Below are positions 6,562 to 63,622 of a stretch of 64,000 bases of DNA, piece by piece. The DNA is taken from positions 2,630 through 66,629 of IMG/VR virus record IMGVR_UViG_3300021356_000014; one strand, written 5' to 3'. The DNA is from a virus. The notes below the pieces were generated by a model. The model saw nothing but the letters and a program-made list of their open reading frames with translations, had not been told where the DNA came from and did not search any database. Numbering within the stretch: the first letter of the stretch is position 1; every line of letters begins with the position of its first letter. Position numbers and translations under genes: made by a program.

Positions 6562-6571
6562 ATTATTTATT

Positions 6572-21029: not shown

Positions 21030-21036
21030 TAGCTAA

Positions 21037-21180: not shown

Positions 21181-22605
21181 ATGCTACAATTAACTAATCC
21201 GATTCCTGAGTCCATTAGAGATTCAAAGAAGTTGGGTATATTATTTAAGAAGTATAATATAATGCCATATTATGGGACTACTGATGAGAGTAGTCACAGT
21301 ATGTTGCGTTTATTATATGATGTGAGTTCGGTAAGTCAGAGTCATGTAGCTTGTAAATTAAATATAATAAGTTATGCATTTGGCGAGCAGTTGGATATAA
21401 AGCAGCCACATATTAGTGGCTTTTATGATACTGAGAATTTGGATAACAAGTTAGATCGTTCTACTAAGGTATCATATATTGAGGCTTTGCGTGGGATGGG
21501 TTTGCGATTAACTGATATTATAAAGTACACTAAATCTGGGTATCATCATTATACTGATTCTGGGAATGCATGGTTTATAGTACGTTTAGTTAAGGCGGGA
21601 GGAGAGAGTAAGGTATATATTGAGCCTGTTCATTACACTCAAGTTGCTTTATTGGTTCCTCGCAGTGGTTCTAACAATTTAAAGAATGCGATTGTAACGG
21701 AGTATTGGGATGAGGATTATTGGAGGCAGCGTAAGCCGAAGGTATATCCTGTTACTGATATGTTTGCTGAGGAGTGGAATTGGAGAGAGCGAGGGAATGG
21801 TACTATCTTTGAGACTATTGTACATATAAAGAATAATGCGGACAAGAGCAAGTTTTATGGTAGGCCAGATACATTGAGTGTATTAAATTATATGTATAGT
21901 GAGTATGCGTTTAGTGATGTAAGTGCAAAGATAAGTGGTACTGAGTTTGTCACAAAGAAGGTATTAGCTTTTGAGGAGTTAGACCCAACACGTTATGATG
22001 GGGATGAGGAGGATAAGATTATGCAGCATCGTCGTCGTATGAATTCCTTGAGGGGATTAATGACAAGGGAGGGCGATCATTTGCAGGCTAAAAGTTTGGC
22101 GGGTATTGAGTATCCGTTTGGTCAGAAGCCTCCTATTGCTATTGATTTAGAATTGAATAGAGATTGGGCATGGAAAGATAAAGAATTAGATAGAGCTAGT
22201 TCTTATATTTATGCTATGCATGGATGGGAGAAGCAGTTAACAGGAATGAAAGAAGTAAAGAGTAATACTGGTAGTAATATTGTTATTGACTTATTTAATA
22301 TTAAGAATGTGACAACTATTACTCCTTTACAGAAATTTTGGGAAAATATATGGGGATGGATGTTAAATGAGATAGGTAGTGTATTACTGCCTAGTCAAGA
22401 GATGTATAGCATTAAGTTTCAAGATAAGATTAAGGAGTTAGTAAATATGTTAGCATTGACTCAAGATGCTGATGTAGTAGCTCAATTAAATTATAATTTG
22501 AAGAGTGGTGCGAGAGTTGATGTAAAGGATAGTAGTGCTGCTGCTAATAAAGACCTAATTAAGAACACCTTAAACGAAGATACTGATGCTGAAGCTGAAG
22601 AGTAG
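21181..22605 (+). CDS. portal protein
   Basis: 474 aa; SQSHVAC, DSGNAW, FYGRPD, IYAMHGW..LTG, TITPLQ pattern. Confidence 0.7.
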   Translation: MLQLTNPIPESIRDSKKLGILFKKYNIMPYYGTTDESSHSMLRLLYDVSSVSQSHVACKLNIISYAFGEQLDIKQPHISGFYDTENLDNKLDRSTKVSYIEALRGMGLRLTDIIKYTKSGYHHYTDSGNAWFIVRLVKAGGESKVYIEPVHYTQVALLVPRSGSNNLKNAIVTEYWDEDYWRQRKPKVYPVTDMFAEEWNWRERGNGTIFETIVHIKNNADKSKFYGRPDTLSVLNYMYSEYAFSDVSAKISGTEFVTKKVLAFEELDPTRYDGDEEDKIMQHRRRMNSLRGLMTREGDHLQAKSLAGIEYPFGQKPPIAIDLELNRDWAWKDKELDRASSYIYAMHGWEKQLTGMKEVKSNTGSNIVIDLFNIKNVTTITPLQKFWENIWGWMLNEIGSVLLPSQEMYSIKFQDKIKELVNMLALTQDADVVAQLNYNLKSGARVDVKDSSAAANKDLIKNTLNEDTDAEAEE

Positions 22606-29200: not shown

Positions 29201-30815
29201 TACTGGTGAACAAACATATGTGTATAATAATATATTTGACAACTCAGACGCGGCATGGATAAATTCTGATGATAGAAGCAATTCTGGAGCAGAATATGAT
29301 AGATTTGGTACATCACATGCAATTTATGCTTATAGTGGACATAGATCAGGGCATTGGTATAATAATGAATTTATTGAAATTAAAGGTACAGTTTTACAAT
29401 GGAATACCAGTTCAAGCATTAATACTGAACAAAGCTTGTATCATATTTACGGTAACTCATTTTACGATTGTGCAGAAGTAGTTACTGCTTTAGGTAATTC
29501 TAGGGATAAAATTTACTTTAGAGATAATCAGATACAAGACAGTAAGCCATTTAATATCAATTCAAACGACGCTATAGTTTATATGTCAGGTAACGTCTGG
29601 AGAGGCTATAATTCAAATATACTAACGGACGGTACAACAAATGTTGAAACTGCATTTGGATTAAGTTTGGAAGCTTTTGATTCACTATTTATAGACGGAG
29701 ATAAGTTTTATGATTTTAATCTATCAACAACTGCACCTGCTATTAGACTAGGTACTAATTCAGCTACTACAGGCAGTAGTGTTTTATCTATTACCAATTG
29801 TTATTTTGATAAGACAAACTTAGTAGCATTAGATGTTACTGGAACTATTGCGCCAAAAGGTAATGTTAAGTTTTCTGGCAATATTGTAAATTGTGGTATT
29901 AGAATATTACAAAATCGTACAGGATTAGATGCAAGAAATGTAATTGTTAGTAATAATGAGTTTTCTATATCTAGTGGAGATCAATCTATTTCTATAGCAA
30001 ATCCAATTACATTTATAAACAATACAATAGATAAGGTTAATCCTTTTGATATACCTGTTTATGCTGATGCAACTGCTAGAGATGCTGCAATACCTTCACC
30101 TGCCTTAGGAGATTATGCGTATGTTGTGGATGTTAATCAAACACAAGAATATAATGGTAGTGCTTGGGTAGTGAGTTTTGTAACTCAGTTTTATCCTATG
30201 GTTCCGCAAGTTTTAGAAACAGCAGCAGCGAAGATGAATTTTGTTGATAATGTGTTTGTTAACAGCACTTATAATAGAACTTATTTTAGCTTAAATGTAG
30301 GTACACTTGATGAAGATGCTCTAGAGTTTCATGGCAATACGTTTTTATCTCAAAATATGAGCAAAAGCATAAATCCATTCTTTACATTTTGGAGAGGTGG
30401 GTTAAGTTTAAATAATGAAGCATTGCTTGGACAAGTTGTTAGCGCGACTGATAATAAATTCATCTACCCTAACGATGATGCTGAATATTTTGCTTATAGT
30501 GATGATAATGGTAAACCGACCTTCTCATCCCTACAAACATCTGATTTCACAGTAGCAATAGATGAATATAACTTAGTTGACCCTAATGGTGGAGCAATCA
30601 CAGCTACAGTTCCTTCAGGTGTTACACAAGTGGGAACGGAATTTTGGGTAGTAGATTCAGAAGGTACAGCAAGTGGTACAAATACTATTACAGTTGATTT
30701 CTCGACTAATGGTTATACAGTAAGTGGGCAGAATACAGCAGTCATTAATGATGCAGGAGATGGATTCAAATTTATCTACATCGGTTCTAATAAATGGATT
30801 TCAGAAAGACTATAA
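26202..30815 (+). CDS. large beta-helix (pectin-lyase-like) protein with signal peptide
   Basis: MKNNLLTIFLTIICIAAYS|Q; many xNNxF/xNCxF Asn-ladder repeats. Confidence 0.7.
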   Translation: MKNNLLTIFLTIICIAAYSQSYNSLDELLEADYLPINRIVSVKDGENSADFKIEKGQGDNITSFSITASKKAVLIGDISLVNLSFIGVKYGEGLSKAEMQSNWAILKSFVYNYSDTLNLTDDLHIWVEGDDALTVEKDLTIKGNKNTLYIHPRKKGFRGTRKVFRHTFGNINIDDLYLKGYSDRWLLETYEVTFKPSGDQDAVLLSGSQSSGFWSNLSTGDTIAFQVDDATAGNVFIVSAFDEPSKTISFTSNFGTADDYTVSGQSYIGVRFEENANSSDIQTYGKSWNVQDNEASALYEELIFISSLNTDTTAAVLQDNYKEFTFNNCDFEGMDFNLRLSGTWLNVYSNNVKEQANAISNSWVGGLANKLSKVVKNQGEVYDCGTVCEASVNDNGVVSTNAIFGGGYYLHPAFVPNFNGVLFRDNNTTSYRNFSSSGNDITGEGWIGSFENCIWQSNNFEPLLITSKSWPTQIINCTFNAPYDGGQTTIQLGNSTSMIGCIVDAPIYLGLNSEPSNEVDDRYFLNFEDCVFYQNARIDLSQWPSATESKATFTFNNSTFFPSNNNADFTIKYSTGNLLINDCFIDRMNEDANGTIYNSSTNLNAFIQLDEGASDSNPFGTVSIDNLRTLKDFSNNDMPIIKGYDENSSTATTADVSGYVFNINVVGESGFTQENLSSVINSSGGGGSYLVNSEYPADMDSTLVFNTTASDATVTCADCAFSASDVGKLIQINGAGRRIMDGDNRDYMDGDELITTIFSVTSATEIEVTDAPTVTVSNTTGYWGTDMSPIINQLITDGQKEIVFKAEGNGWIFGQRLDANQQNNSCILVNQNNVTIKGIGLPRLNWVSTNPNSYITTNLDDAAETANGVSDKTPFDIHLIYVDESDNFILDGVLGYNIGQDESRVDADQEGGNWSNTTYNADQELNNTVVPYARWENKQANSGAVVRYRGYCVGGEVRNNTSYRTGFFVRVDKGATDNDVSYGLKIYNNRVNGYGSTAVSTGEQTYVYNNIFDNSDAAWINSDDRSNSGAEYDRFGTSHAIYAYSGHRSGHWYNNEFIEIKGTVLQWNTSSSINTEQSLYHIYGNSFYDCAEVVTALGNSRDKIYFRDNQIQDSKPFNINSNDAIVYMSGNVWRGYNSNILTDGTTNVETAFGLSLEAFDSLFIDGDKFYDFNLSTTAPAIRLGTNSATTGSSVLSITNCYFDKTNLVALDVTGTIAPKGNVKFSGNIVNCGIRILQNRTGLDARNVIVSNNEFSISSGDQSISIANPITFINNTIDKVNPFDIPVYADATARDAAIPSPALGDYAYVVDVNQTQEYNGSAWVVSFVTQFYPMVPQVLETAAAKMNFVDNVFVNSTYNRTYFSLNVGTLDEDALEFHGNTFLSQNMSKSINPFFTFWRGGLSLNNEALLGQVVSATDNKFIYPNDDAEYFAYSDDNGKPTFSSLQTSDFTVAIDEYNLVDPNGGAITATVPSGVTQVGTEFWVVDSEGTASGTNTITVDFSTNGYTVSGQNTAVINDAGDGFKFIYIGSNKWISERL

Positions 30816-30826: not shown

Positions 30827-33547
30827 ATGAAAAAAATATATTTAACATTGATGCTACTAATATCGGTAGCATCATTATTTGGGCAAAGGTTTAGTAGTCC
30901 TTTATTAATTAGTAATTTAAAGTCTGATGTTGTGCAAAAATCGGATTTTACAATAACTGGGACTACTACATTAACTTCTGCTAGTTCAACTTTTACTTCT
31001 AGTGATGTTGGTAAGACTATAAGTATATATGGAGCAGGTGATTTAGGTGCTGAACATATTACTACAATTGCATCTGTTACAAGTGCTACAGAGGTAGAGC
31101 TGACTAGTGCTGCTAGTATAAATGTAACAAGTGCTGACGGTTTTTATGCAACAAATAATTCTCCTTTGCTAGATGCTGCTATTGAAGAAAACAAAAATAT
31201 AACAGTAAGTAAAGGTACATATTACTTTGCTGATGAAATAGCAAAAAATGATGTAGATAATTTCTCAATAGATTTTCAAGGTTCGACAATTTACTTTAAC
31301 ACCTTCTTCAATTCAAGTTGGGGAGAAGGGTCTAATGATAATTTAGAGCCAAACATATTTGATTTACAAAATTGTGATAATGTAAGTTTTGAGAATGTAA
31401 CAGCAGAGTTTTTAGGTCAAACATTTGCTTTAAATGATACTGTTTCGTATTCTTCAGAATTTTCTACAACTACTGTAAGTAGTACAGAAGTTACTGTAAC
31501 AAGCGCAACAAATGTATTTACAGCAAGTGATGTAAATAAAATTATTAGACTACAAGGTGCAGGTAGTCAATATTACTATTTTTATATTTCAGAGTTTGTC
31601 TCTTCAAGTGAGGTAAGCATAAAAGATGGCGGTGGTTTTGATAACCCTAATTTAGGAACCTTACAAACAACTCTTACAAATGTAGATGGTAAGATATTCA
31701 GCGAGGATGGATATACAGGAATACTACAAGGTCAAGCTTATGATCGAAGATATAACAAACGAGGTAATACAGGTAATTTTGTTGCTTTAAATACAAGTAC
31801 TAACATTAATCTTACTAATGTAAAAACGATAGGATTAGGTCAATTGTTAGGTATAACAGGAGGTAATAATTCTAAGCTAAACATTTTTAATTGTGAGGTT
31901 GATGGTTATGGAAGTGTAGCTATTTCCCCGTGCGATTATACAACAATAAGAAATTGTATTATAGATAACCAAGAAGCACAAGCTATTACAGCAATAGATC
32001 AAGGGCAAAACTTAGGTACTTCACATGCTATCTATACTACACAAGCTTATGAAAATGTAATCATAGACAATAATGATTTAACATATATCCGAGGTGTTGC
32101 AATACAGTGGAACACAGGAAGCTCAGGTAAAAGTAAAGGGCATTTTGTGACTAACAATTACATGTTTGAAGCACAAAGAGCAGGGACTATTCAGGGGTCT
32201 GCTGAATGGCAAGTGACCTTTGAAAATAATATTTGGGAAAATTGTGGTCAATGGTCTGTAAACTCAACTAATAGTAAAGTTTATATAAAATCAGACACAT
32301 ATAAAGGTGAACCAACTGAGCAAACAGATTATTTAGGTGCATGGGGTATTGTCAATGCTGACTATTTTGAAATGAAAAACTCAACATTAAATGCGGTTTT
32401 TACAGGTGTTACTGGTACTGATGTTAGTGCATTATCATTTTCTATGCAATCATCTAGTGCAGTTAGAGATATAGACGTAAATATCGACAACAATATATTT
32501 GTCAATAATACAAATGATTTACAATTTATAAATGAACAATTCGCATTGACAGCAGGTAATGAGATTAAAATAACTAGAAATGAATTCTTAGGAAATGTGT
32601 ATCTAGTTAAAAGTAGCTCTGGTACATACCGTCAGGCAGATTTAGAAGAGTATATTTTATTTGAGAATAACAACTTCTACGGTACTACATTTATCAGGAT
32701 GGGAGCTAGTTTCTTGTATAATAACTTTACTAAAATTGGTGATTCTGATTTAGCATTAGATATTGATATGTTGTCAGATGCAGGTGCGAGTGGTGAAAGA
32801 AATTTAGTTTTAAATCATAATACTTTTGAAAGAATTAATGGTACAGATTCAGACATAGTAGAGTTAAGTGCTGCGAGTGATTTAAGGGTTGTGTTTGACA
32901 ATAATAAAGGCTTAAATCAATCTACACAAGTACAATTAAATGGAGGTTCTTTCATAAGTAGAAAAGGACTACATCAAACTAATAGTGATAACTATTTTAT
33001 AAAATCAAATAGCAATAGTATTTGGACATTAGAAAGTCCATCTTTGGCACATATTAATTTTAAACATGAAGATGCTAATCAGTGGAAAATAGGCACAGAA
33101 GATGGCGGACTTTTGGACGATAAGTTTATTATAGCATACTCTGGTAATTCATCTTTATCTAGTGGTGTTAGAATGACTATATCAACTGGAGGAAATGTTG
33201 GCATTGGTACTGATAGAGCCGTAGATGCTAGTGAAAAACTTGAAGTGCAAGGTAATATAAAGTTAAATGATGAAGGGGGTACAGTTAGATCGGACTTGAT
33301 TGGTAATGCTGATAACAGGGGAACTGTAACAATAACAGAAGCAAAAACTGGAAGTTATACTTTTAATGTTTCAAAGTCAGATGGCAACTATATTGTTGCT
33401 ACCTCAGTAGAGATAGTGTCTGGTACTCCGAGTTCGGATGAACTTATAGTTACTGTTGAAAAAACAACAAATAGTATTACTTTTACACTTTTTGAAGGTT
33501 TAGATGTAGGAGAAGCCGTAAACATAAACTGGATATTAGTACAGTAA
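30827..33547 (+). CDS. beta-helix tailspike-like protein with signal peptide
   Basis: MKKIYLTLMLLISVASLFG|Q (ATG 30827); beta-helix repeats; RMTISTGGNVGIGT..KLEVQGNI fibre motif. Confidence 0.7.
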   Translation: MKKIYLTLMLLISVASLFGQRFSSPLLISNLKSDVVQKSDFTITGTTTLTSASSTFTSSDVGKTISIYGAGDLGAEHITTIASVTSATEVELTSAASINVTSADGFYATNNSPLLDAAIEENKNITVSKGTYYFADEIAKNDVDNFSIDFQGSTIYFNTFFNSSWGEGSNDNLEPNIFDLQNCDNVSFENVTAEFLGQTFALNDTVSYSSEFSTTTVSSTEVTVTSATNVFTASDVNKIIRLQGAGSQYYYFYISEFVSSSEVSIKDGGGFDNPNLGTLQTTLTNVDGKIFSEDGYTGILQGQAYDRRYNKRGNTGNFVALNTSTNINLTNVKTIGLGQLLGITGGNNSKLNIFNCEVDGYGSVAISPCDYTTIRNCIIDNQEAQAITAIDQGQNLGTSHAIYTTQAYENVIIDNNDLTYIRGVAIQWNTGSSGKSKGHFVTNNYMFEAQRAGTIQGSAEWQVTFENNIWENCGQWSVNSTNSKVYIKSDTYKGEPTEQTDYLGAWGIVNADYFEMKNSTLNAVFTGVTGTDVSALSFSMQSSSAVRDIDVNIDNNIFVNNTNDLQFINEQFALTAGNEIKITRNEFLGNVYLVKSSSGTYRQADLEEYILFENNNFYGTTFIRMGASFLYNNFTKIGDSDLALDIDMLSDAGASGERNLVLNHNTFERINGTDSDIVELSAASDLRVVFDNNKGLNQSTQVQLNGGSFISRKGLHQTNSDNYFIKSNSNSIWTLESPSLAHINFKHEDANQWKIGTEDGGLLDDKFIIAYSGNSSLSSGVRMTISTGGNVGIGTDRAVDASEKLEVQGNIKLNDEGGTVRSDLIGNADNRGTVTITEAKTGSYTFNVSKSDGNYIVATSVEIVSGTPSSDELIVTVEKTTNSITFTLFEGLDVGEAVNINWILVQ

Positions 33548-33561
33548 AATAAACAGCAGAT

Positions 33562-33833
33562 AACTAGAGTATTGCACGCATAGTTCGCTATGCTCGCTAT
33601 GAACGCTCAGTTCGCTATGCCTGCTATGCTTGCCTTGCTCTAGTTGCGTTAAGCGTTATAGCGTTGCGTTTCTTGATGAAGCGTTGCGTTATAGCGTTGC
33701 GTTTAGGATGCGTTTAGGATGCGTTAACTAATTAATACTGAGGGGATTGTGATAGCGTTTAAGTTGCGTTTTATTGCGTGCAACTATAACGCAAAAAATA
33801 TTTTATAAATTTTAGCGTTAGCGTATAGCGTTA
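33562..33833. repeat. intergenic field of CGCTATG and GCGTT repeats
   Basis: AACTAGAG...CTCTAGTT arms enclose CGCTATG repeats, followed by about 15 CGTT/AACG sites. Confidence 0.85.
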
Positions 33834-38392: not shown

Positions 38393-38427
38393 AAAGAGGA
38401 TTGCCCGCATTGCGGGCAATCCTCTTA
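38393..38427. terminator. hairpin between convergent units (putative bidirectional terminator)
   Basis: AAGAGGATTGCCCGCA-T-TGCGGGCAATCCTCTT near-perfect palindrome. Confidence 0.7.
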
Positions 38428-38486
38428 TTTTAGTATCGACATATGTCTGATATTACTTGTTAGCTGCAAGTGCTACATAAGCGCAT

Positions 38487-39290
38487 TTAATCAGCTTTAT
38501 GCGTATCATCCGTAAAAGAAAAAAGCCCACGCTCTTTTGCCTTTTCAAGGCAATTTGGGTTAATATCACAACCAATAAAGTTTCGCTTCAAATCTTTGCA
38601 TACTTCTGCTGTTGTAAAGCTACCACTATAAAAATCTGCTACTAAATCACCTTCATTGCTACTTGCTTTTATTATTCGTTCAATTAATTTTATCGGCTTA
38701 TTTGTTGCATAAGCGATTCTGCCATATCTTGTAGAAAAGTTGTCTAGTATAAAACAGTCTGTATAATATCCAAGAGTATACTCTCCAATATTATCAAATT
38801 CATATTTCAAATTTGGGTCATATCCTCTACTTTTATCAATATATACTTTATTTTCTCTTGGGTTTTCAAAGTTATAGTTATTTGTTTTTGTGTAAAATAA
38901 AATACAATCGTGCTTTTTACTAAATTCTTTTCTACTAGCACCTCCTGTTTTGTATCCCCAAACTATCTCATTCCTAAAGTTTTTATACCCAAAAACATCA
39001 TCCATAATACACCTTATCCAATGGTTTATTCGCGTATCCATCTGCAAATAAATACTGCCTGTTGGCTTTAGTATTCGGTACATTTCTTTAATGCGAGGTA
39101 TGTAATGCTCTTCAATTATATCACGTTTAGGTTTTAAGTCTTGGTAGTCTTTAAACTTTCTACCAGTACCATAAAGTATATCACAATAAATTAAATCTAC
39201 TGTATTGTCTTGCATTTCTGCCATTAATTCAAGGTTGTCACAAATTCTCATATCTAAAAATTGCCCTCCCTCTTTTTCTTTTACTATCAT
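38487..39290 (-). CDS. DNA methyltransferase, N4C/N6A beta class
   Basis: DLIYCDILY (motif IV variant), RILKPTGSIY, FRNEIVW, KPIKLIERII, VADFYSGS (motif I). Confidence 0.88.
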   Translation of the reverse strand: MIVKEKEGGQFLDMRICDNLELMAEMQDNTVDLIYCDILYGTGRKFKDYQDLKPKRDIIEEHYIPRIKEMYRILKPTGSIYLQMDTRINHWIRCIMDDVFGYKNFRNEIVWGYKTGGASRKEFSKKHDCILFYTKTNNYNFENPRENKVYIDKSRGYDPNLKYEFDNIGEYTLGYYTDCFILDNFSTRYGRIAYATNKPIKLIERIIKASSNEGDLVADFYSGSFTTAEVCKDLKRNFIGCDINPNCLEKAKERGLFSFTDDTHKAD

Positions 39291-39381
39291 TCGTTTTTCA
39301 ATTAAAGTTTGTACTAAATAAGCCGCACCAGTCAGCTAACACGGTATAAAAAGCATTAAAACGCCTTTTTATACCCAACCG

Positions 39382-39912
39382 TTAGCTGTAATATTGGCTT
39401 AGGTCAATGCTATTTTCAGCTTCGTTACCCCAAGTATGCCAACCCTGCTTCTCCTCTCTACAAAACATTTCCAGTCTGGCAGCACTTGGATACCACTCTT
39501 TTATTAAGTTTCGTATAAAGTCAGGCTTTTTACTGTGCTTGCCTCGTTTCTCTTCCATTACACTACTTATTCTCATTGTGCTTGGCGGTGGGCTAAACTT
39601 ACCTTTTTTAGCAACCATAAGTAGTTCGTGCTGCCCTCTAAACCAATACCCCATACCAATCATCTTTTTATCCCAAATACCGTGTGTTACATACTTAAAC
39701 CCCCATGCTTCTATTACCTTCATTGCTTCGGGTAGTTTTGGAGCAGTAGCCCACATATACAACACAGCATTTTCGTTTGTCATATTCTTTACAGGCAAGT
39801 TGCAAATATCATCAATAGTCATTGTGGGGTATTGGTTTTCCACGTCTCTGCTTTTACTTTTACTAAAGTCATATCGCCACGCAGGGTCGGCATAAATTAC
39901 ATCATATTTCAT
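39382..39912 (-). CDS. MT-A70 family adenine methyltransferase
   Basis: VIYADPAW, YPTM, LYMWAT, AWGFKY, GMGYWFRGQHE, HSKKP, LEMFCR. Confidence 0.9.
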   Translation of the reverse strand: MKYDVIYADPAWRYDFSKSKSRDVENQYPTMTIDDICNLPVKNMTNENAVLYMWATAPKLPEAMKVIEAWGFKYVTHGIWDKKMIGMGYWFRGQHELLMVAKKGKFSPPPSTMRISSVMEEKRGKHSKKPDFIRNLIKEWYPSAARLEMFCREEKQGWHTWGNEAENSIDLSQYYS

Positions 39913-47427: not shown

Positions 47428-47664
47428 ATGAATACAGATACTAAAAGCTATGACGGCGATACATTGTTAGGCGCATGTGCCTTAGATGATAAAATATTAG
47501 CTGAAGCGTTTGTTTTATTATTTGACCCGACTTGGAAGCGTAATTGGACAAATAAAGATAAGGCAAAAGAAATGCGCTCAATTATAAACGGACAAACGCA
47601 AGTATGTAGACCTTTTTTTAATTACGCAGAATGTATAGATTACCTAAGTAGGTATTGCGCCTAA
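47428..47664 (+). CDS. small cassette protein
   Basis: Starts in the hairpin loop; stop TAA lies in the CCTAAC end box. Confidence 0.6.
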   Translation: MNTDTKSYDGDTLLGACALDDKILAEAFVLLFDPTWKRNWTNKDKAKEMRSIINGQTQVCRPFFNYAECIDYLSRYCA

Positions 47665-47684
47665 CAAGGTATATCAGAAATATT

Positions 47685-47764
47685 GAAGATATTTTTTAGG
47701 ATTTGCTCGCAATTGCAAGCAAATATTTTTAACTTGCCTTGATTATATAATTAAAAACTAAAAA
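47685..47764 (+). promoter_or_regulatory. repeated promoter/operator element, copy 1
   Basis: ATATTTTTTAGGA-TTTGCTCGCAATTGCAAGCAAA-TATTTTTAACTTGC. Confidence 0.7.
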
Positions 47765-47977
47765 ATGGGATACAAAATTAAAAACGCAGAATTATCTGAT
47801 TTCTTTGAGGTGATGGATAGCCTTGAAAAACTACTAACAGATAGGATAAGTGATTTACATCAGGTAAAAGGAGGTATGCAAGCAAGACACGCATATATAC
47901 TTTACAGGAAATTACTATGGGAAGCTAAGGATATAATGAGAGATAACATCGAAGAAATTAAAACGGAAAGTAAGTAG
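47765..47977 (+). CDS. hypothetical protein
   Basis: 70 aa ORF directly after the promoter element. Confidence 0.6.
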   Translation: MGYKIKNAELSDFFEVMDSLEKLLTDRISDLHQVKGGMQARHAYILYRKLLWEAKDIMRDNIEEIKTESK

Positions 47978-48067
47978 AAAGAAAATAAATTATGAACTGG
48001 CAAGTAGTTTTAAAAAGACCCGTAACACGGCTATTTGCTATATTTTGTGTTATAGGGCGTTATTATT

Positions 48068-48295
48068 ATGAACTTATAATATGTACAAAACGGAAGAGGC
48101 TTAAAATTTATCAAAAAAGGAATGAAGTGTAAAAATACCTACTTAGGTAAGGTTGGGATAGTAAAAGGTGGAAATAGTAGTGGTAACATTGATGTATTAT
48201 TTGAAGGGGAAAAGAAAGCAGAAAATTGCCACCCAACTTGGGCGATGAAGTATTTTGATGAAAACGATAATGTTATTGCAGAGTATGGGCAGTAA
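48068..48295 (+). pseudogene. cassette gene with an in-frame TAA at codon 4 (or a 57-aa product from ATG 48122)
   Basis: ATG AAC TTA TAA TAT GTA..GGA ATG AAG TGT..NCHPTW..TAA, all in one frame. Confidence 0.5.
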
Positions 48296-48327
48296 ATGCC
48301 CTATAACAAGGTATATCAGACATATGA

Positions 48328-48409
48328 AAAATATTTTTTAGGATTTGCTTGCAATTGCGGGCAAATCTTTTTAACTTGCAATCATTAACTAATTAAAATA
48401 AAAAAAAAT
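48328..48409 (+). promoter_or_regulatory. repeated promoter/operator element, copy 2
   Basis: TTTGCTTGCAATTGCGGGCAAA 48344-48365; TTGCAA-N17-TAACTT. Confidence 0.7.
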
Positions 48410-55461: not shown

Positions 55462-56855
55462 TGAGATCGTATATCAGATTAGAAATTCAAAAAGAAGGGG
55501 AAAATGAGATAAGTATGTCAGATGTATCTTATCAGAATGAGAGATACTCAATACTATTTTTATCTAATCAGGGAGTGATAGACAATATGCTTACTAATAT
55601 AGAGGGTAGCTTCCCAGATAGTGATATAAAACGCATAGGAGAGCAAGCTATATTTGAAAATATTATAGACCAGTATGAAAACTTACCTTTACGAGAGTTC
55701 TCGACAGAAGTAACAAAGTCGTTGACTCAATTTGGGGCGGCATTAAAATGGGGTATCTTTATTATTGATGAATGGCTAGATACAGTAACAGTAGTATTAG
55801 ATGAGTTAGGAACAATCCCTGTTTATTACAGATTATCTGAGGATGTTGTAGAGTTGACTACTAGGCTATTCTTTCATAATAATGTAGAATGGTCGCATGA
55901 AGGCGTTACAGAGATTATAAATAATAATATGTCAAGAGATCACTCTTTGCTATCAAACTGGTATCCTTTGCAAGCAAATTCTTGCTACAAATTTACATTA
56001 ACCAAAGATAGCTATGAGGTAGTTAATAATTTGAACATCAGTAAATTAGGTATCCCTGTTTTGCCTAATCTAGCTAATGAGTTCGACTTCAAAAGTAGTT
56101 ATGATTCTTATGATAATGTTATAAAGACATTTGAGTATGTATTTAGTAAAACAGTAGAATATTTACCTGATAACTGCGCTTATATAGCACAAGGCTCTCC
56201 TCTTGATGTACTTATTATTGAAGAGATGTTAGATCAAAATATAAATTTTAGATTATTCTATATAAATGGGTTATCAAATAAATATGCAGACTATTATTCT
56301 AAAAAGTATAAGGCTACTGAATTAAAAGTAGATATTGAGGATAGCAGATTTAATGGAGTATTATCTAGCTTCGATTATTCGGATTACTTTATGGCAAACG
56401 CTATATCACAAATTAAAAAAGAAGGATTTGAGGAGGTATTTGGATGCTTCGCAGCAAGTTATTTCCTACATGACTGGAAAGGAGGAGAATCAGATATTGC
56501 TACACACGCACTAGAAGAATTTATAACGATGAAACAAGATTACCGACATAGAATTGGGAAAGTAATTTCGGATATATCGTTCGTTGCAGATATTGAGGTT
56601 AATGACTTACTAAGTAGCGACTTAATTACAAGTATGATGCATGGATTCTCTATAGCTAGTATGATACCCGAACTTCTTAACTCAAATATTGATGACTTCG
56701 CTAAGTTTCTTAGAAATTTGTACTTTAACTATGGAGTAAGTAAAGAAATAATAAATGAAATACCTACATTTTTATTTACCCCTCTTGGGGGCAGTTCTAT
56801 AGAGCAAAAAGAAGCATTAGCTGAAAAAATTATCTCTTCGTTTATTGAAAACTAA
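55461..56855 (+). CDS. highly diverged asparagine synthetase B-like protein
   Basis: LDELGTIPVYYR resembles the AsnB DxxGxKPLYY motif; N-terminal Cys and LSGGLDS are absent. Confidence 0.45.
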   Translation: MRSYIRLEIQKEGENEISMSDVSYQNERYSILFLSNQGVIDNMLTNIEGSFPDSDIKRIGEQAIFENIIDQYENLPLREFSTEVTKSLTQFGAALKWGIFIIDEWLDTVTVVLDELGTIPVYYRLSEDVVELTTRLFFHNNVEWSHEGVTEIINNNMSRDHSLLSNWYPLQANSCYKFTLTKDSYEVVNNLNISKLGIPVLPNLANEFDFKSSYDSYDNVIKTFEYVFSKTVEYLPDNCAYIAQGSPLDVLIIEEMLDQNINFRLFYINGLSNKYADYYSKKYKATELKVDIEDSRFNGVLSSFDYSDYFMANAISQIKKEGFEEVFGCFAASYFLHDWKGGESDIATHALEEFITMKQDYRHRIGKVISDISFVADIEVNDLLSSDLITSMMHGFSIASMIPELLNSNIDDFAKFLRNLYFNYGVSKEIINEIPTFLFTPLGGSSIEQKEALAEKIISSFIEN

Positions 56856-56930
56856 ATATTTTTTAAGATTTGCTTGCAATTGCGAGCAAATCTTTTTAAC
56901 TTGCAGTCATTAACTAATTAAAAATAAATT
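56854..56930 (+). promoter_or_regulatory. repeated promoter/operator element, copy 3
   Basis: TTTGCTTGCAATTGCGAGCAAA 56869-56890 followed by TCTTTTTAACTTGCAGTCATTAACTAATTAAAA. Confidence 0.7.
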
Positions 56931-56950
56931 AACGATAAACTTAAATTGAA

Positions 56951-57334
56951 ATGAATATAACTAATTGCGAAAAGTGCGGGTGTAAAAAGACTTGGAAGGG
57001 TGATGATATTACTTGTAGCTTCCAAGATTCTGAAAAATTTGGCGATAACTGGAAATGCGGATTGATTGGTAAGATTAGATATTTATGTGAATTAGCTATG
57101 GAGGGCAAAGACCCTAGATTACATTACCAATATTGCGAAGGCCAAAAATATGTAACAATAAAGACTGATGATATAACAGAAATGGGTCTTTGCCTTTGGG
57201 TGAGTTGGTATAAATCTCGTGGTAGAACAGAGGCTATGTGGATATTGGATGGGGATAACCAACCAAAACAGCCAAATTTTAGCGACCTAAAAGCAATTAT
57301 TGAACACTATTCTGAATTATTAGCTGAAATGTAG
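56951..57334 (+). CDS. hypothetical protein
   Basis: 127 aa, CEKC, WYKSRGRT. Confidence 0.65.
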   Translation: MNITNCEKCGCKKTWKGDDITCSFQDSEKFGDNWKCGLIGKIRYLCELAMEGKDPRLHYQYCEGQKYVTIKTDDITEMGLCLWVSWYKSRGRTEAMWILDGDNQPKQPNFSDLKAIIEHYSELLAEM

Positions 57335-57445
57335 CATTGTATATAATGTGAATGTATCTATCCCTGTACCGACCTTTTGGGAGGAATGGAGATAGATGCC
57401 CTGTTAGCCACCGTTTTTATTTTTCTAAAATTTTAAATCATTATA

Positions 57446-57913
57446 ATGTTACAAGAAGATTTCAGATTAGGGAATTACATTTTAGCTTCACAATATTTTG
57501 ATGAAGACGAAGCCCAAGACGACTTACAGGAAGATTACTCTTTTGAAAACGAATGGGATTTGTGTAAAATAACATCAATTGAAAATACTGATTTTGCTCC
57601 TTTTTCTTATGGGCTTGAATCTATCAGAAATGGGAATAAACCGAATCCAGAAATTTGGAACAGATTAGAACCTATTGAGATTAACGAAGATTATCTTATT
57701 AGATTTGGATTTGAGAAATATCCTCATGGTGGAAATGGTTTTAAGTTTGAAGGTTTTGTTGTTTATATTTTGAGAGATTCTATTGAAATAGAACACACTC
57801 CTGCAAAATTTACTGATAGGGTTCATGTTTGCAGCCATATCAAATATTTACATGAATTACAGAATCTTTATTATTTTTTAAATGGTTCTGAGTTGGTTTA
57901 TTCTCCTTGCTAA
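57446..57913 (+). CDS. hypothetical cassette protein
   Basis: FRLGNY..LEPIEINEDYLIRFGF..IKYLHELQNLYY; stop lies in GCTAAC. Confidence 0.7.
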   Translation: MLQEDFRLGNYILASQYFDEDEAQDDLQEDYSFENEWDLCKITSIENTDFAPFSYGLESIRNGNKPNPEIWNRLEPIEINEDYLIRFGFEKYPHGGNGFKFEGFVVYILRDSIEIEHTPAKFTDRVHVCSHIKYLHELQNLYYFLNGSELVYSPC

Positions 57914-58004
57914 CGTACTTGTATATGAAATGCGAAACGCAGTGTAGTTTTTTATATACTGTGTTAGCTGACGAAGTGAACTGTTAATTTTTAAATTTTA
58001 CCCG

Positions 58005-58505
58005 ATGGGAATAGACAAAATAGGAAACAAAAACAACTCTTTTGAAAGTAAGAGTATTGAGTATAGCACACCATTAGCAATAGTGAAACCCTTGATTGAG
58101 GAATTTAGTATTACCAAAGATGTTTGTGCAAGTAAGGTAAACCATAAACTACCCGATTACTGGACTAAAGAAGATGATGCCTTAACAAAAGATTGGATTG
58201 GTAATTGTTGGATGAACCCACCATTTGATAGAAACTTACAAAAATGGGTAAGGAAAGCACATAAAGAAGCTATTAAAAATGGCGGAACAAAGGTTTGCCT
58301 GATACCTGTTAGAAGTAATACAAAATGGTGGGCTGAAACGATGATAGATGCAGAAATACGGTTTATAAATGGTGAAGTAAATTTTAATGACGAACCACGA
58401 GGTTTATGGATGGGTATGTGTATTGTTGTTTTTGGCGAACAAGCGAAAGTAGGTACACATAGCATTATTGATTATAGGAAAGCAAGGGTGAAATTTAAAA
58501 ATTAA
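58005..58505 (+). CDS. phage Dam-like DNA N6-adenine methyltransferase
   Basis: YSTP, DVCAS, DDAL..W, WMNPPF, WVRKA, LIPVRSNTKWW, IRFI.G. Confidence 0.88.
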   Translation: MGIDKIGNKNNSFESKSIEYSTPLAIVKPLIEEFSITKDVCASKVNHKLPDYWTKEDDALTKDWIGNCWMNPPFDRNLQKWVRKAHKEAIKNGGTKVCLIPVRSNTKWWAETMIDAEIRFINGEVNFNDEPRGLWMGMCIVVFGEQAKVGTHSIIDYRKARVKFKN

Positions 58506-58616
58506 TTGCAGCTAACGGTTTGGCTATGCACCGTAAAGCATAGCACAATGTTTAATCTTAGCACTTACCTTAATCGCTTTATGGTGTATAGGTTGTGTTA
58601 GCAACAGTTAATTATT

Positions 58617-58850
58617 ATGACAATTTATAGAATATACTCTGATAAACAGCCTGACACTATGTTTGCAAGTAGCCTTGTGTGTAGTGTAGTGGTTGTAGCA
58701 AATAGCGAAGAAGAAGCAAAGCAGATAGTGGAAAAGAAACACGGTGATAACTTTGTATGTGATTACGAAGATGTTAAAGTAGAAGCTATTTGCGGTGATA
58801 ACCAATCAATGATTGTAAATGTGGAATACTTTAATGATAGCCACTACTAA
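58617..58850 (+). CDS. small cassette protein
   Basis: 77 aa, VVVANSEEEAKQ. Confidence 0.65.
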   Translation: MTIYRIYSDKQPDTMFASSLVCSVVVVANSEEEAKQIVEKKHGDNFVCDYEDVKVEAICGDNQSMIVNVEYFNDSHY

Positions 58851-58883
58851 TTGTTGCTAACAGGGTATATCAGAAATAAAAAA

Positions 58884-58960
58884 AAATATTTTTTAAGATT
58901 TGCTTGCAATTGCGAGCAAATCTTTTTAACTTGCAGTCATTAACTAATTAAAAACTAACT
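58884..58960 (+). promoter_or_regulatory. repeated promoter/operator element, copy 4
   Basis: About 70 bp identical to copy 3. Confidence 0.7.
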
Positions 58961-58963
58961 ATT

Positions 58964-59341
58964 ATGAATTTATCAGAAACACCTACTACAATATTAGGTA
59001 AAACAGTAAAATCTATCAGAGAACTAAGTGATTGCTGTATTTGCCTAGAATTTACTGATGGCACTAATTTTTGGCTAAATAGTTCGACAACCTTAGCTGC
59101 AATAGTTGACTGTAGCGACGATACATTATTAGGCAACAAAATTGTAGGTATAAAATTTGAATCTACTACTAGAGTAGATGAATCTTTTTATACTTGTAAT
59201 ATAGAAGTCGATAATGATGGGAAGCCTTCATACCAGATGTTTTCTATATGGATTAATGGATTAAGCGGGAAGAAAGAGGAGATGAGAAGAAACTTGAAAG
59301 CAAATCCCCTGCATTTTGTTAATGCAGATTTACCATTTTAA
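58964..59341 (+). CDS. hypothetical protein
   Basis: 125 aa ORF after the promoter element. Confidence 0.6.
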   Translation: MNLSETPTTILGKTVKSIRELSDCCICLEFTDGTNFWLNSSTTLAAIVDCSDDTLLGNKIVGIKFESTTRVDESFYTCNIEVDNDGKPSYQMFSIWINGLSGKKEEMRRNLKANPLHFVNADLPF

Positions 59342-59586: not shown

Positions 59587-60975
59587 ATGAAACAATATCT
59601 CGATCTGTTAGAAAAAATTGTACATTCAAGTACATACAAGGATGACCGAACAGGAACAGGAACTTTTAGTCTATTCGGACATCAAATGCGTTTTGATTTG
59701 AGTGAAGGATTCCCACTAGTCACTACAAAGAAGGTACATTTTAAAAGTATTGTACATGAGCTGCTGTGGTTTCTAAAAGGGGATACCAATATTAAATACC
59801 TACAAGAAAATGGTGTACGTATTTGGAATGAATGGAGACAACCATATTCTTTAAATCGAGATGTGGTTTTCATTGATCCTGTTAAAAGTGAATTTGATTC
59901 ACCATATTTAGGAGATTTTTCAACAAAAGGTCTTAATGCTGCGAAAAATTCAGTTGATGATAAACTGAGAAACCTATGGGTTAAGATGATGAAAAGATGT
60001 TATGATTCTTCATCTCATAACTTTCATCTATACGGTGCATTAGGTGTAAGAGTTTGCAAGGCATGGCATGATGTACAGGTTTTTGTTGATGATGTTAAGC
60101 AAATACCTCATTGGTATTATAAGCTTAATGACTGGTCAAACTTTGAATTGGATAAGGACTATTATGGCTCTAAACTATATTCAAAAGATACGTGTGTTTG
60201 GTTAAGAACTGATGAGAATAATCTATATACTAAAGCTACCAAACCACTCGAAATTACAGATGATATGGGTGTAAAGAAGTTTTACATTTCTTTAAATAAT
60301 GCTGCTTCTTCTCTGAATATACCCTCATCCACATTATCACGTTTTGTTAATGAAAATCCTAAAATCTTAAAGGGCAATAACAAACAGTTTGTTAAATGGT
60401 CCTTTCAAGTTGCTGAACTAAATGGCAAATTACCTAGATTTGAACTTATTAAAGAAGGTTCTTTAGGACCAGTTTACGGCGAACAGTGGCGTAATTTTAA
60501 CGGTATTAATCAACTAACACAAGTTATTGATCGGATTAAAAAAAACCCCGATTGTCGTCGTATTATTGTTTCTGCATGGAATCCAGCTGAGATTGACAAT
60601 ATGGCACTGCCCCCTTGTCACTGTCTGTTCCAGTTTGTTGTTATCGACGGTAAGCTGTCCTGTCAGCTCTACCAGCGTTCGGCTGATGTATTTCTTGGTG
60701 TACCCTTTAATATTGCTTCTTATTCACTACTAACCATGATGATGGCACAAGTTTGTGGCCTAGAAGCAGGAGAATTTGTCCATACTATTGGTGATGCTCA
60801 TTTGTATATAAATCATATGGAGCAAGCAAAGATTCAATTAAGCAGGCAAATGCGAGCATTGCCTACTGTAAGAATCAACCCAGATGTGAAAGACATCTTT
60901 TCGTTCCAATTTGAGGACTTTGAGTTAATAGATTATAATCCTCATCCACCTATAAAAGCAAAAGTCGCAGTCTGA
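59587..60975 (+). CDS. thyA: thymidylate synthase with an in-frame HNH-like insertion of about 207 aa
   Basis: DRTGTGT, FPLVTTKK, ELLWFL, LGPVYGEQWR, MALPPCH, YQRSADVFLGVPFN; insertion 59836-60456. Confidence 0.95.
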   Translation: MKQYLDLLEKIVHSSTYKDDRTGTGTFSLFGHQMRFDLSEGFPLVTTKKVHFKSIVHELLWFLKGDTNIKYLQENGVRIWNEWRQPYSLNRDVVFIDPVKSEFDSPYLGDFSTKGLNAAKNSVDDKLRNLWVKMMKRCYDSSSHNFHLYGALGVRVCKAWHDVQVFVDDVKQIPHWYYKLNDWSNFELDKDYYGSKLYSKDTCVWLRTDENNLYTKATKPLEITDDMGVKKFYISLNNAASSLNIPSSTLSRFVNENPKILKGNNKQFVKWSFQVAELNGKLPRFELIKEGSLGPVYGEQWRNFNGINQLTQVIDRIKKNPDCRRIIVSAWNPAEIDNMALPPCHCLFQFVVIDGKLSCQLYQRSADVFLGVPFNIASYSLLTMMMAQVCGLEAGEFVHTIGDAHLYINHMEQAKIQLSRQMRALPTVRINPDVKDIFSFQFEDFELIDYNPHPPIKAKVAV

Positions 60976-61123
60976 AAACTCAATTTAGAAAAACTCGATT
61001 ATGGAAAACTCAATTTAGAAAAACTCGATTATGGAAAACTCGATTATGGAAAACTCGATTATGGAAAACTCGATTTAGAAAAACTCGATTATGGAAAACT
61101 GGATTATGGAAAACTCAATATAA
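60974..61123 (+). repeat. 10 x 15-bp tandem repeat RAAAACTCGATTATG
   Basis: Units counted directly, starting at 60974. Confidence 0.95.
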
Positions 61124-61215
61124 TGAATAACTTTTTTAGAGCATTAGGGACAGCATTGTTTCTAATGCTTATTACTTTAATATTTATTTTATCAATACTA
61201 TTTATATACATATGA
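61123..61215 (+). CDS. 30-aa hydrophobic peptide
   Basis: MNNFFRALGTALFLMLITLIFILSILFIYI; ATGA overlap with 61212. Confidence 0.45.
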   Translation: MNNFFRALGTALFLMLITLIFILSILFIYI

Positions 61216-62309
61216 AATATTCAACATACTTTTTTGATTCGCTAGGATGGTTGCGAATGAATAGGTGGCCAGATGAGTATAAAACTTTTCAAGAACATAG
61301 AGAAGAGATTATAAATAATCCTGACTTGGCTTGGAAAGATTGTAATGCAGGCGATTCGCTTTACAGAACTTGCCTATATCTAGCACTAATCGGTAATAAC
61401 ACTCAGGCAGATAAGTTCATTACAGACTATTTAGAGGATATGATAAACTCAGGAGAGTATTACAGGCATCCTACCGATTCTAAAAAGCATATCTCAAGAG
61501 ATCAAATTATTGCTCTTTGCTTTTTCTTGTATACATTCAATAAAAAAGAATTACTTAAAAAGATTGCTAGGCAACACAGATTTAGATTTACACTAAAATC
61601 TAAGTACGGAACAGGGGCATATCAATCCATTGATTTCTATCTGTTTTTGCAAGCAATTGCTTGCAACTCGATGGCTAGTAACTCGATGGCCAGTAACTCG
61701 ATGGCCAGTAACTCGATGGCTAGTAACTCGATGGCTAACTCGATGGCCAGTTCAAGAGCTGCCCTGATAGGGCACTCGATAGCTGCCTCGATAGCTAGAG
61801 GCTCGATGTTTGGCTACTCCATAGGAGCATTTTTCGCTCGATGGATGTATATGATGCTCGATAGCTTAATATTTCCTTGCATGATGGCTTGGAATGTCAT
61901 AGTAAGAGGTATATTCAGAATGAAGTTTAGACCCTTAGAGCAAGCATTATCCTACATCCCATCACAACGAGATATAAATGGAGGTAAACTACTGTATCCA
62001 AAATATGCGCTATTCCTTAATAGCTTGCAACATTATATGCTATTCGGTAAATCCTCAATGTACGGCAAACTAAAAAGAAAACTGATTCATAAGTCTAATG
62101 TATATTGTAGATCATTAGTATATTACGATGGGTCGCCTACCTTGCATGATGTATTTACAACGCATACAGAAATACAAGGAGGTGTACATCTAAGATACCT
62201 CGATGGCTCTCAAAGACTAAAAAAGCTAAAAAAAGCTGAATTAGAAAATGATCTTCAATACTCATTAACTGTAAATTTAGGAATTTTATTGCTTCTGACA
62301 AAAGATTAA
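61212..62309 (+). CDS. hypothetical protein with an SNSMA repeat insert
   Basis: 365 aa; AGDS..T and YRHP..ISRDQII; 15-bp repeats at 61665-61751. Confidence 0.65.
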   Translation: MKYSTYFFDSLGWLRMNRWPDEYKTFQEHREEIINNPDLAWKDCNAGDSLYRTCLYLALIGNNTQADKFITDYLEDMINSGEYYRHPTDSKKHISRDQIIALCFFLYTFNKKELLKKIARQHRFRFTLKSKYGTGAYQSIDFYLFLQAIACNSMASNSMASNSMASNSMASNSMANSMASSRAALIGHSIAASIARGSMFGYSIGAFFARWMYMMLDSLIFPCMMAWNVIVRGIFRMKFRPLEQALSYIPSQRDINGGKLLYPKYALFLNSLQHYMLFGKSSMYGKLKRKLIHKSNVYCRSLVYYDGSPTLHDVFTTHTEIQGGVHLRYLDGSQRLKKLKKAELENDLQYSLTVNLGILLLLTKD

Positions 62310-62723: not shown

Positions 62724-62915
62724 ATGAGCAAAGAACAGAAATTGTTAGCTGCTGTTGCGACTGAAATGGAGTATGAACGCTATGAGTACAAAGGCGTTTT
62801 ATTACAGAGGCTAAACAAAGACTATATATGGTATGCGATTTACCAAAATCAAATAATAAACTGGAGCAAGTATAGCAACGACTTAGAAAGCTGGATTGAC
62901 AGCAATTGCAGCTAA
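62724..62915 (+). CDS. small cassette protein
   Basis: Starts upstream of GTTAGCTGC (62744); stop lies in CAGCTAAC. Confidence 0.6.
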   Translation: MSKEQKLLAAVATEMEYERYEYKGVLLQRLNKDYIWYAIYQNQIINWSKYSNDLESWIDSNCS

Positions 62916-62990
62916 CGGTTAGCATAAGAATAGTACGGGAATAACCCAAAAAAGATAAAACGGAGTACAAATTTTAAAACAAAAATAGCG

Positions 62991-63362: not shown

Positions 63363-63622
63363 CCGTGCGAGGGCTTTTGATTTAAAATTCCTCAATAACG
63401 CACTACCGCTTATGCGAGCTACTAACGTAGTATTATTTTTATGCATTGTTAGCGGTATGTGTCTTATTTAAGAAAAAGAACGAAACCTTAAATAGCGCAC
63501 TGCCTTAATTAATATTTTGGCATTACCGCTAACGGTTTGGCTATGTGCTGAACGTAATAAAATGAAGTTTTGCATATAGCTTGTGTTATATGCTTTTTAT
63601 TAACTGATTAAAGGAAATAATT

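Follow-up and report, generated by a model that had tools for sequence, protein, structure and literature searches.

A candidate recombination end site closing integron-like cassette rows in a lytic-looking marine phage

In integrons, promoterless one-gene cassettes stand in rows joined by imperfect hairpin sites (attC) with AAC...GTT cores, and a distinct site that forms no hairpin (attI) occupies the 5' head of the array, between the integrase gene intI and the first cassette. Another arrangement is that of the Xer-dependent dif modules of Acinetobacter plasmids, in which genes lie between inversely oriented short sites and are moved by a non-adjacent Xer-type enzyme. In contrast to the phage rows considered here, these modules use duplex dif-like sites of 28 bp, with no folded hairpins and no terminal docking site. 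Here we analyse 64,000 nucleotides (nt) of virus DNA, bases 2630-66629 of the 66,629-bp IMG/VR record IMGVR_UViG_3300021356_000014 (rated complete by CheckV), and a 17-nt motif in it that closes rows of small accessory genes. The whole stretch is referred to as the window, the phage under study as G000, one close relative as G001 (94% amino-acid identity in the DNA polymerase) and a recombinase-bearing relative as G024. With belief and doubt about evenly balanced, we propose that the motif is the recombination end site, that is an array-closing half-site, of an integron-like phage cassette system and that it is used in trans.

In the portion of Qi et al. 2023 (PMC9892861) drawn on here, clusters of attC sites without an integrase (CALINs) are reported in virulent phages, including Polaribacter phage P12002L, one of three phages tested, of which one site was recombined by IntI1 into attI1. 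Such sites are treated there as stray integron parts; an array-terminal site, a rule of end pairing or a Xer-type partner is not mentioned in that portion of the paper. The promoter early stem-loops (PeSLs) of T4-type phages (Arbiol et al. 2010, PMC2839356; Comeau et al. 2014, PMC4122927), according to the sections of those reports used here, belong to myoviruses of Proteobacteria, contain sigma-70 promoters and work by homologous recombination alone, without TAAC/GTTA cassette ends. A limited literature search returned no description of an array-terminal site or of a Xer-type partner for phage cassette rows.

The rows of G000 resemble those of integrons in being made of promoterless one-gene cassettes joined by imperfect hairpins with AAC...GTT cores. 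The linker hairpins have the two-stem layout of attC with an unequal internal spacer, the two ends of each cassette are complementary, the cargo includes DNA methyltransferases, and a distinct non-hairpin site stands at one end of the array, in relatives beside a recombinase gene. However, this site is located at the 3' end of the row and is co-oriented with the genes, and does not lie between a divergent intI and the first cassette. Also unlike integrons, it is the gene strand that folds, the end pairing extends over 9-29 bp instead of a few bases, and the enzyme of the relatives is a 267-aa Xer-like protein, of which G000 has none. The likeness to CALINs is seen in P12002L, which carries the same hairpin family between methyltransferase genes and no recombinase; in its methyltransferase block a partner-less TAAC-AAC-GGATAAAAC... 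element is present twice, at row ends. Integron-like cassette systems with these hairpins are common and widespread in Bacteroidota-type phages.

Searching the window for the 17-mer with up to three mismatches gave five matches against 0.51 expected, a number reached in 0 of 100 shuffles, which rules out a chance origin of the motif. The fifth match (30045-30061, minus strand, three mismatches) is buried inside a 1537-aa open reading frame (ORF) and was taken as chance. The other four are the only copies in the full record (Table 1), and they bear out the claim of the first-pass annotation of this DNA that four gene runs are closed by a common motif that is not a hairpin. In every case the copy directly follows the final same-strand gene of a row and precedes a terminator hairpin, which is not the classical place of attI. 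The stop codon of the preceding gene lies inside the motif at copy 1 and 9, 8 and 23 nt upstream of it at the other three, while the distance from the end of the motif to a TTGC palindrome is 25, 25, 26 and 27 bp, in agreement with the 25-30 bp estimated earlier. A GTTA partner arm 3' of the motif is absent from the intergenic regions examined at all four copies, and the motif is unpaired in all four folds, with no conserved partner. It consists of only TAAC and a 5' stem arm, and not of the paired TAAC...GTTA outer cores and inner covarying stem of an attC-like linker hairpin. A long-range pairing of the motif beyond the terminator was suggested by the fold of copy 1 but is not conserved in the other copies, and a small ORF spanning the motif and the repeat module next to it was rejected because the reading frames differ between copies.

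Two variants of the motif are present in G001. One, TAAC-ATA-GTATATAAGA, lies 5' of the orthologous module; the other, TAAC-ATA-GTATATCAG, is followed by a loop and the perfect complement CTGATATACT and precedes a different terminator/promoter region. Among the six copies of the two phages TAAC is constant, GTATAT is found in five (the minus-strand copy reads TAATAT) and the 3-nt spacer varies between AAG, AGG and ATA. Read on the other strand, the four G000 copies give GTTAGGC, GTTATAG, GTTAGCA and GTTAGCT. GTTA is constant in these, and of the four only one fits the integron core in the form GTTRRRY printed in the part of PMC9892861 used here. Scanning 2.9 million viral contigs for the exact 17-mer returned 88 stretches, all of which have a coding-like context and show no TAAC, hairpin or module. 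The 17-mer is therefore restricted to this lineage, and the idea of a widespread element was rejected. Five complete phages with the hairpin box described below show a motif-like pattern, which corresponds to ordinary hairpins read antisense and not to terminal sites. A degenerate copy, TAGC-ATT-GTATATAATG, which agrees at 10 of 13 positions, is present at an internal junction (57332-57350) directly after ORF 56951-57334; 3' of it is a hairpin with a normal TGTTAGCCACCGTT box on its 3' side.

The small accessory genes that precede the motif appear to be cassettes bounded by GTTA-x at the 5' end and x'-TAAC at the 3' end, x and x' being complementary. They would be joined by hairpins of the form TAAC...GTTA that fold on the gene strand; at the end of a row, TAAC, the 3-nt spacer and GTATAT(CAGA) take the place of a hairpin. 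We scanned for such ends, for which shuffles at a 7-bp threshold give 0.6-3 pairs per strand. On the gene strand, pairs of at least 9 bp number two in G000 (48049/48304 and 58597/58858; 9-10 bp) and four in G001, one of which is 29 bp long and surrounds a methyltransferase gene, and an 18-kb piece of G024 holds five pairs of 10-12 bp. Nearly all cassette end pairs have G:T at the seventh position. In the opposite orientation or on the opposite strand only short AT-rich pairs were observed, apart from two 12-bp pairs in hairpin orientation, one on the minus strand of G000 (two G:T) and one in the G024 piece (four G:T), which we read as chance. Both G000 pairs belong to cassettes that end at the motif, with 9 bp at copy 2 and 10 bp at copy 3, and the motif thus starts at the TAAC of an end-paired cassette, as do the recombinase-proximal sites of relatives. 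Pairing across a whole gene in this manner is the trace left by site-specific cassette exchange.

Analysis of the boundaries reveals that the junction with the motif falls exactly at TAAC for six different cassette 3' ends (four from G000, two from G001). The TAAC of motif copy 2 is also the exact point where homology between the two phages resumes. Metagenome contigs return to the reference sequence at 48304 and 58858/58859, and one departs from it immediately after 58861. In the cassette before copy 1 (47466-47665) the 5' GTTA falls within ORF 47428-47664, and the preceding hairpin therefore encloses the start codon. Movement of cassettes is also visible elsewhere. A methyltransferase cassette with self-complementary ends of 26-29 bp (GTTA-CCCATCTGTATTTTTAAAAATGGCA...) is common to G001 (32705-33405) and P12002L (L168; 37200-38117), phages that are otherwise unrelated, and, as judged from these sequences, is direct evidence of cassette movement between phage lineages. 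The G024 gene at 6546-7145 (L172) has a coding start similar to that of this methyltransferase and different cassette ends. Conversely, cassette 48049-48307 of G000 and the cassette at 33487-33717 of G001 have the same ends, GTTA-TAGGGCG ... ATGCCCTA-TAAC, around unrelated genes in different places.

Sites of the same general form lie beside recombinase genes in relatives. In G024, a row of at least eight small genes ends in a cassette that is immediately followed by the gene of a 267-aa protein with PF13495 and PF00589 matches. This protein has 109 relatives in viral contigs. Among the best 80 of the 109 (62-100% identity) there are 63 distinct upstream regions, and 61 of these contain x'-YAAC followed by a TA-alternating tract that forms no hairpin, 37-77 nt before the start of the recombinase gene; two regions failed the pattern, one of which clearly has a variant of the site. 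The consensus of the recombinase-proximal site is TAAC-TAT-TATATATA, and the terminal YAAC has a partner of at least 8 bp upstream, at the other end of its own cassette, in 27 of 47 cases. The three closest bacterial homologues of the recombinase, found in Bacteroidota assemblies, have the same site. The 61 of 63 loci with a terminal site indicate that arrays with a 3'-terminal site exist in this cassette system. By sequence comparison, the motif of G000 matches these terminal sites in position and general form. What is shared is the layout only (TAAC, 3 nt, TA-alternating tract), for the motif does not follow the consensus itself, and the genes downstream of its copies are small ORFs without a recombinase domain, in contrast to the recombinase gene of the relatives.

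The motif is related to the linker hairpins as well. Many intergenic regions of G000 are bracketed by GCTAAC...GTTAGC, and the hairpins at 39335-39386, 57909-57968 and 58511-58602 have both the paired TAAC...GTTA core and the inner covarying stem. The string GCTAAC-N3-GTATA occurs eight times against 1.78 expected, and all three matches in complete hairpins are the reverse complement of the 3' arm. Read from its letters, the motif is the R-box/L-box stem of such a hairpin as plain duplex DNA, without a GTTA partner. Internal junctions have TAAC-G and a 5-6-nt spacer, whereas the form with the 3-nt spacer is found in the gene-sense 5' position only at row ends, in six of six intact copies. At 62911-62923 the core boxes abut without a stem (GCTAAC-G-GTTAGC), a minimal or 'empty' junction.

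The first-pass annotation had not remarked that the three plus-strand copies of the motif form the 5' end of a dispersed repeat of about 104 nt (family D5), of which the copy at 56856-56923 lacks the motif. The 68-nt core of this module comprises an AT-rich tract, a hairpin whose 13-bp stem consists of two TTGCNNGCAA palindromes side by side, then a T run and the boxes TAACTTGC and TAATTAAAA, and terminator-like stems were called at three of the four copies in G000. Two identical cores flank positions 56924-58885 of G000, while G001 has one core and nothing else. Read depth in four metagenomes collapses within both variable blocks, from about 100-fold to 1-10-fold in run X3 and in proportion in the other runs. 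The two-core block against the single core, together with the collapse in depth, indicates that rows with the motif move through module exchange. Whatever assembled the rows originally, homologous exchange between modules thus adds or removes them along with the motif that closes them. In the parts of PMC2839356 and PMC4122927 cited here, PeSLs are likewise dispersed intergenic repeats, with a terminator-like stem-loop and a promoter-like box, and flank variable small genes; a block with two copies in one phage and a single copy in its relative is described in PMC2839356. The module fits this type, being a dispersed intergenic stem-loop repeat with a predicted promoter and terminator that bounds insertions and deletions between close relatives. 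However, in contrast to the PeSLs, the G000 module adjoins a separate system that looks site-specific.

Since the motif lies in a regulatory intergenic region, it might be a promoter or operator element of the downstream module, whose TTG-N20-TAACTTGC resembles the perfect Bacteroidota-type TTG-N20-TAACTTTG at 41652. We give this hardly any credence. The motif is located upstream of the terminator hairpin and not downstream of it, neither of its strands has -33/-7-like boxes, two of the six module copies do not have it, and at the minus-strand copy the terminator is a different one and a module is absent.

The TTGCNNGCAA palindrome of the module (10 bp) is present at 23 sites between 10720 and 61666 of the window, against 1.17 expected, and 23 sites were reached in 0 of 100 shuffles. 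These sites, for example 21037, 33774, 38410, 40776, 44613, 45929 and 61647/61657, are intergenic or inside replication genes, and adjacent pairs occur in the module and at 61647-61666. The palindrome looks like a candidate binding site of a dimeric protein. The same double palindrome is found in unrelated phage contigs of about 50% guanine plus cytosine (GC; L104-L114). As a lead to the module elsewhere it was abandoned, 9 of 11 stretches belonging to this unrelated group and showing a different context.

Several observations weigh against a role of the motif as a recombination end site. A search for PF00589 at E<=1 in all six frames of G000 and G001 gave no match, although the control matched in 14 of 14 reference genomes, and neither phage has a PF00239 or PF01797 match; as the latter is absent, movement of 'TAAC plus hairpin' elements by a transposase of the HUH/Y1 type was also discarded. 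Nor was any remnant of the small recombinase detected, a protein search with the 267-aa sequence giving no match at E<=10. Among 46 records with the hairpin box only two contain a tyrosine recombinase, and none of the 12 complete ones does. An ungapped weight matrix built from 43 distinct recombinase-proximal sites ranks the motif copies 623, 930, 978 and 1048 of 1073 YAAC sites, because their TA tract is out of register by one base. End pairing at copies 1 and 4 amounts to only 6 bp. Break points are found at GTTA as well as at TAAC, such as the loose end before 58596 in metagenome contigs, and a single crossover point is therefore not established. Finally, the module cores at 56856 in G000 and at 28925 in G001 (one of its two) have no motif, and a natural metagenome variant joins 47976, in gene 47765-47977, straight to the core at 48331, again without it. 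The motif therefore travels with the cassettes and is not fixed in the platform.

Taken with the earlier results, these points divide the claims of the first-pass annotation. Its fixed platform site is not upheld, as module copies without cassettes do not carry the motif; the search of the genome and relatives that it had advised returned four copies in the record and two variants in G001, but also these bare cores. Its docking site is in part supported, by cassettes that end exactly at TAAC, by end pairing at two of the four copies and by the terminal sites of relatives, and in part weakened by the missing recombinase and the poor consensus score. The alternative named there, the left arm of a truncated attC family, also holds to some extent, the motif being an R-box/L-box hairpin arm that in G001 belongs to a full palindrome.

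This alternative can be stated as follows. The motif may be inert, what is left of a linker hairpin (its left half, with R box, spacer, L box and loop) after the right half was lost on joining the module; it would then be copied with the composite repeat of about 104 nt and moved by homologous recombination in the manner of PeSLs, with no docking. We regard this as a serious rival, though on the whole less likely than not. One G001 motif forms the left arm of a complete palindrome of 10 bp (AGTATATCAG...CTGATATACT), and the graded right-arm remnants in other copies, among them those of G000, shorten stepwise from CTGATAT to GATAT and TAT and look like decay. The motif belongs to family D5, neither G000 nor G001 has a recombinase, and two identical cores around four genes in G000 against one core in G001 is the PeSL pattern, as far as the cited part of PMC2839356 describes it. 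Orthologous copies of the motif in the two phages are identical at 14 of 17 positions, no better than the genome average, and therefore show no sign of special constraint. However, six cassette ends exactly at TAAC would need either repeated exchange at this point or homologous exchange within about 17-30 nt, the restriction of the 3-nt-spacer form to row ends is not explained, and the arrays of recombinase-bearing relatives also end in a partner-less site.

The linker hairpins are part of a large family. A 17-nt box, CTAACGGTTTGGCTATG, which is located at 58512-58528 in G000, is present exactly in 49 viral stretches (loci L119-L167), all with 29-43% GC. A stop codon lies just 5' of it, and its pairing partner is a TATAG-N4-TGTTA box located 17-259 nt downstream. 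The box is within 25 nt of a same-strand ORF stop in 39 of 48 distinct instances, compared with 6 of 48 in the opposite-strand control. The helix extending CTAT(G)/(T)ATAG covaries, with at least three contiguous pairs in 36 of 44 instances, 22 distinct helices and a mean contiguous length of 5.5 pairs, compared with 1.3 when the partners are shuffled; for 23 short members, RNAalifold reports four pairs with 5-14 double changes. Non-Watson-Crick pairs on the gene strand are G:T in 29 cases and A:C in none, and the helix is longer under the sense rule in 25 of 36 cases and under the antisense rule in 0, a comparison biased by the fact that the 3' box was picked using the same sense pairing rule. 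In about a dozen contigs the 3' box falls within the first 20 or so codons of the next ORF (peptide ...KALHI[AG]xV...) and the wobble positions are conserved, indicating conservation at the nucleic-acid level. In many members of the 49-contig family the hairpin encloses the start codon of the next gene. In one subclass (63528-63600 of the window; 32376-32450 of G001; L126, L132, L146 and L163) the 3' strand of the inner helix, GCATATAGC, has two mutually exclusive partners, the 5' box or a downstream TATATGC with a T run, an arrangement that is attenuator-like.

These properties raise the possibility that the motif and the hairpins act in the transcript, in processing, stability, attenuation or translational control, and that recombination break points coincide with them only as conserved islands. 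The placement after same-strand stop codons, the covarying inner helix, the predominance of G:U over A:C on the sense strand, the start codons inside some helices and the alternative T-run terminator hairpin (for example 63528-63600) would all suit such a role. However, the pairing of the two ends of one cassette over 9-29 bp across a whole gene has no obvious function in RNA and is a signature of site-specific exchange, the motif itself has no pairing partner in its folds, and G:T pairs suit single-stranded DNA equally well. No Rfam family reaches the gathering threshold in the window, and none is credible at E<=5 within 56800-59000. An RNA role is therefore improbable in our judgement. That the hairpins are purely RNA elements and the motif an orphan arm without meaning at the DNA level was our first reading, which was downgraded after the cassette end-pairing test.

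If the motif is indeed a recombination end site, cassettes would be joined at its TAAC by a small tyrosine recombinase of the Xer type, whose source in trans would be a co-infecting phage or the host. Whole rows, with the motif, would then be moved or deleted when module copies recombine by homology. The mobile unit may comprise a hairpin and its downstream gene, with exchange at the 5' arm and growth of the rows at the 3' end; the hairpins that enclose start codons, at 47466 and in the 49-contig family, fit such a unit. Tentatively, and with less conviction than for the end site as such, this can be extended to an integron in mirror image. The motif, as double-stranded DNA, would be active in docking, the hairpin would fold on its gene strand, exchange would take place at TAA|C in the 5' arm, the unit of hairpin (sometimes with the start codon) and following gene would be added 3', and a small Xer-type recombinase present in only a minority of phages and Bacteroidota hosts would serve many recombinase-less lytic phages in trans.

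Table 1. Positions in the window of the motif copies, cassettes, linker hairpins and module cores of G000
Feature	Position	Strand	Description
Motif copy 1	47662-47678	+	TAAC, AAG, GTATAT, CAGA; exact; TAA is the stop codon of ORF 47428-47664
Motif copy 2	48304-48320	+	Exact, same as copy 1; closes cassette 48049-48307
Motif copy 3	58858-58874	+	One mismatch, spacer AGG; closes cassette 58597-58861; site named in the first-pass annotation
Motif copy 4	38446-38462	-	Two mismatches; 3' of N6_N4 methyltransferase gene 38487-39290 (minus strand), 5' of terminator hairpin 38394-38426
Cassette	47466-47665	+	Weaker end pairing (6 bp); 5' GTTA inside ORF 47428-47664
Cassette	48049-48307	+	Self-complementary ends GTTA-TAGGGCGTT ... 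AATGCCCTA-TAAC; holds ORF 48122-48295
Cassette	58597-58861	+	Self-complementary ends GTTA-GCAACAGTTA ... TAATTGTTGC-TAAC; holds ORF 58617-58850
Linker hairpin	39335-39386	-	Between two methyltransferase genes of the minus-strand block
Linker hairpin	57909-57968	+	GCTAAC...GTTAGC; reverse complement of 3' arm is GCTAAC-ACA-GTATAT, the motif layout
Linker hairpin	58511-58602	+	GCTAAC...GTTAGC; contains the 17-nt box of the 49 viral stretches; folding with RNA parameters gives -40 kcal/mol (z -5.8)
Module core copy 1	47689-47756	+	AT-rich tract, double TTGCNNGCAA hairpin, T run, TAACTTGC and TAATTAAAA boxes
Module core copy 2	48331-48398	+	13-bp stem at 48340-48369, then T run
Module core without motif	56856-56923	+	Directly after 464-aa gene; left repeat bounding the G000-specific block
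Module core copy 3	58886-58953	+	Identical to 56856-56923; right repeat bounding the block
Block absent from G001	56924-58885	+	Four genes (including Dam, 58005-58505), three linker hairpins, motif copy 3
Strong terminator-like hairpin	38394-38426		Located between convergent genes; includes a TTGC palindrome; gap to motif copy 4 of 19 nt, or 27 nt counted to the internal TTGCGGGCAA palindrome

Other repeats and inserts were observed in the window. The thymidylate synthase ORF (59587-60975, 462 aa) has its Pfam match split in two; between 59836 and 60534 G000 has 699 nt where G001 has 96 nt, an in-frame insertion, and metagenome contigs (10 in run X2 and 3 in run X3) leave the reference right after 59835. 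It is possibly an intein or an insert of the homing-endonuclease type. Ten tandem 15-nt units (AAAACTCGATTATGG-like) are present at 60944-61149, just upstream of ORF 61212-62309, and at least four further 15-nt units (AACTCGATGGC-like; tandem family D7, with an 11-mer repeated six times) at 61656-61740 inside this ORF. The 15-nt repeats and the ORF look like iterons and an initiator, and hence like a candidate replication origin. About ten tandem 10-nt units (ATGCTTGCGT-like) follow a TTGCCCGCAA palindrome at 21026-21145, upstream of ORF 21181-22605, and three tandem repeats of 204 nt lie at 16566-17177 inside ORF 16562-17542.

The genome of G000, with a GC content of about 33%, encodes a tape-measure protein, a large terminase, a family-A DNA polymerase, a DnaB-like helicase, a primase, a SbcCD-like nuclease and three DNA methyltransferases, and G000 looks like a lytic siphophage of marine origin. 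Its genes have no Shine-Dalgarno leaders, and the perfect TTG-N20-TAACTTTG box at 41652 is located in a divergent control region; from these two features we infer that the host is probably a member of the Bacteroidota. No close cultured phage was found by blastn of the genome, and the DNA polymerase is less than 30% identical to those of cultured phages, none of which is close. A protein scan of metagenomes gave only one 3-kb fragment and duplicates of loci already known. Parts of the window have no cover in the metagenome contigs, and the word shares of runs X8-X24 are small; neither was used as evidence on habitat or absence.

If the motif acts as proposed, lytic marine phages would store their accessory genes in rows similar to those of integrons, each with a defined site at its end, and the motif would be a concrete duplex substrate beside the folded hairpins. 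For most of these phages the enzyme needed would be encoded outside their own genome. The cargo here includes the three DNA methyltransferases, which likely have anti-restriction functions, and should the mirror-image arrangement hold, lytic phages without a recombinase of their own would be able to trade methyltransferases and other counter-defence genes. Such rows would provide a route of gene exchange among virulent phages that is distinct both from homologous mosaicism and from classical integrons.

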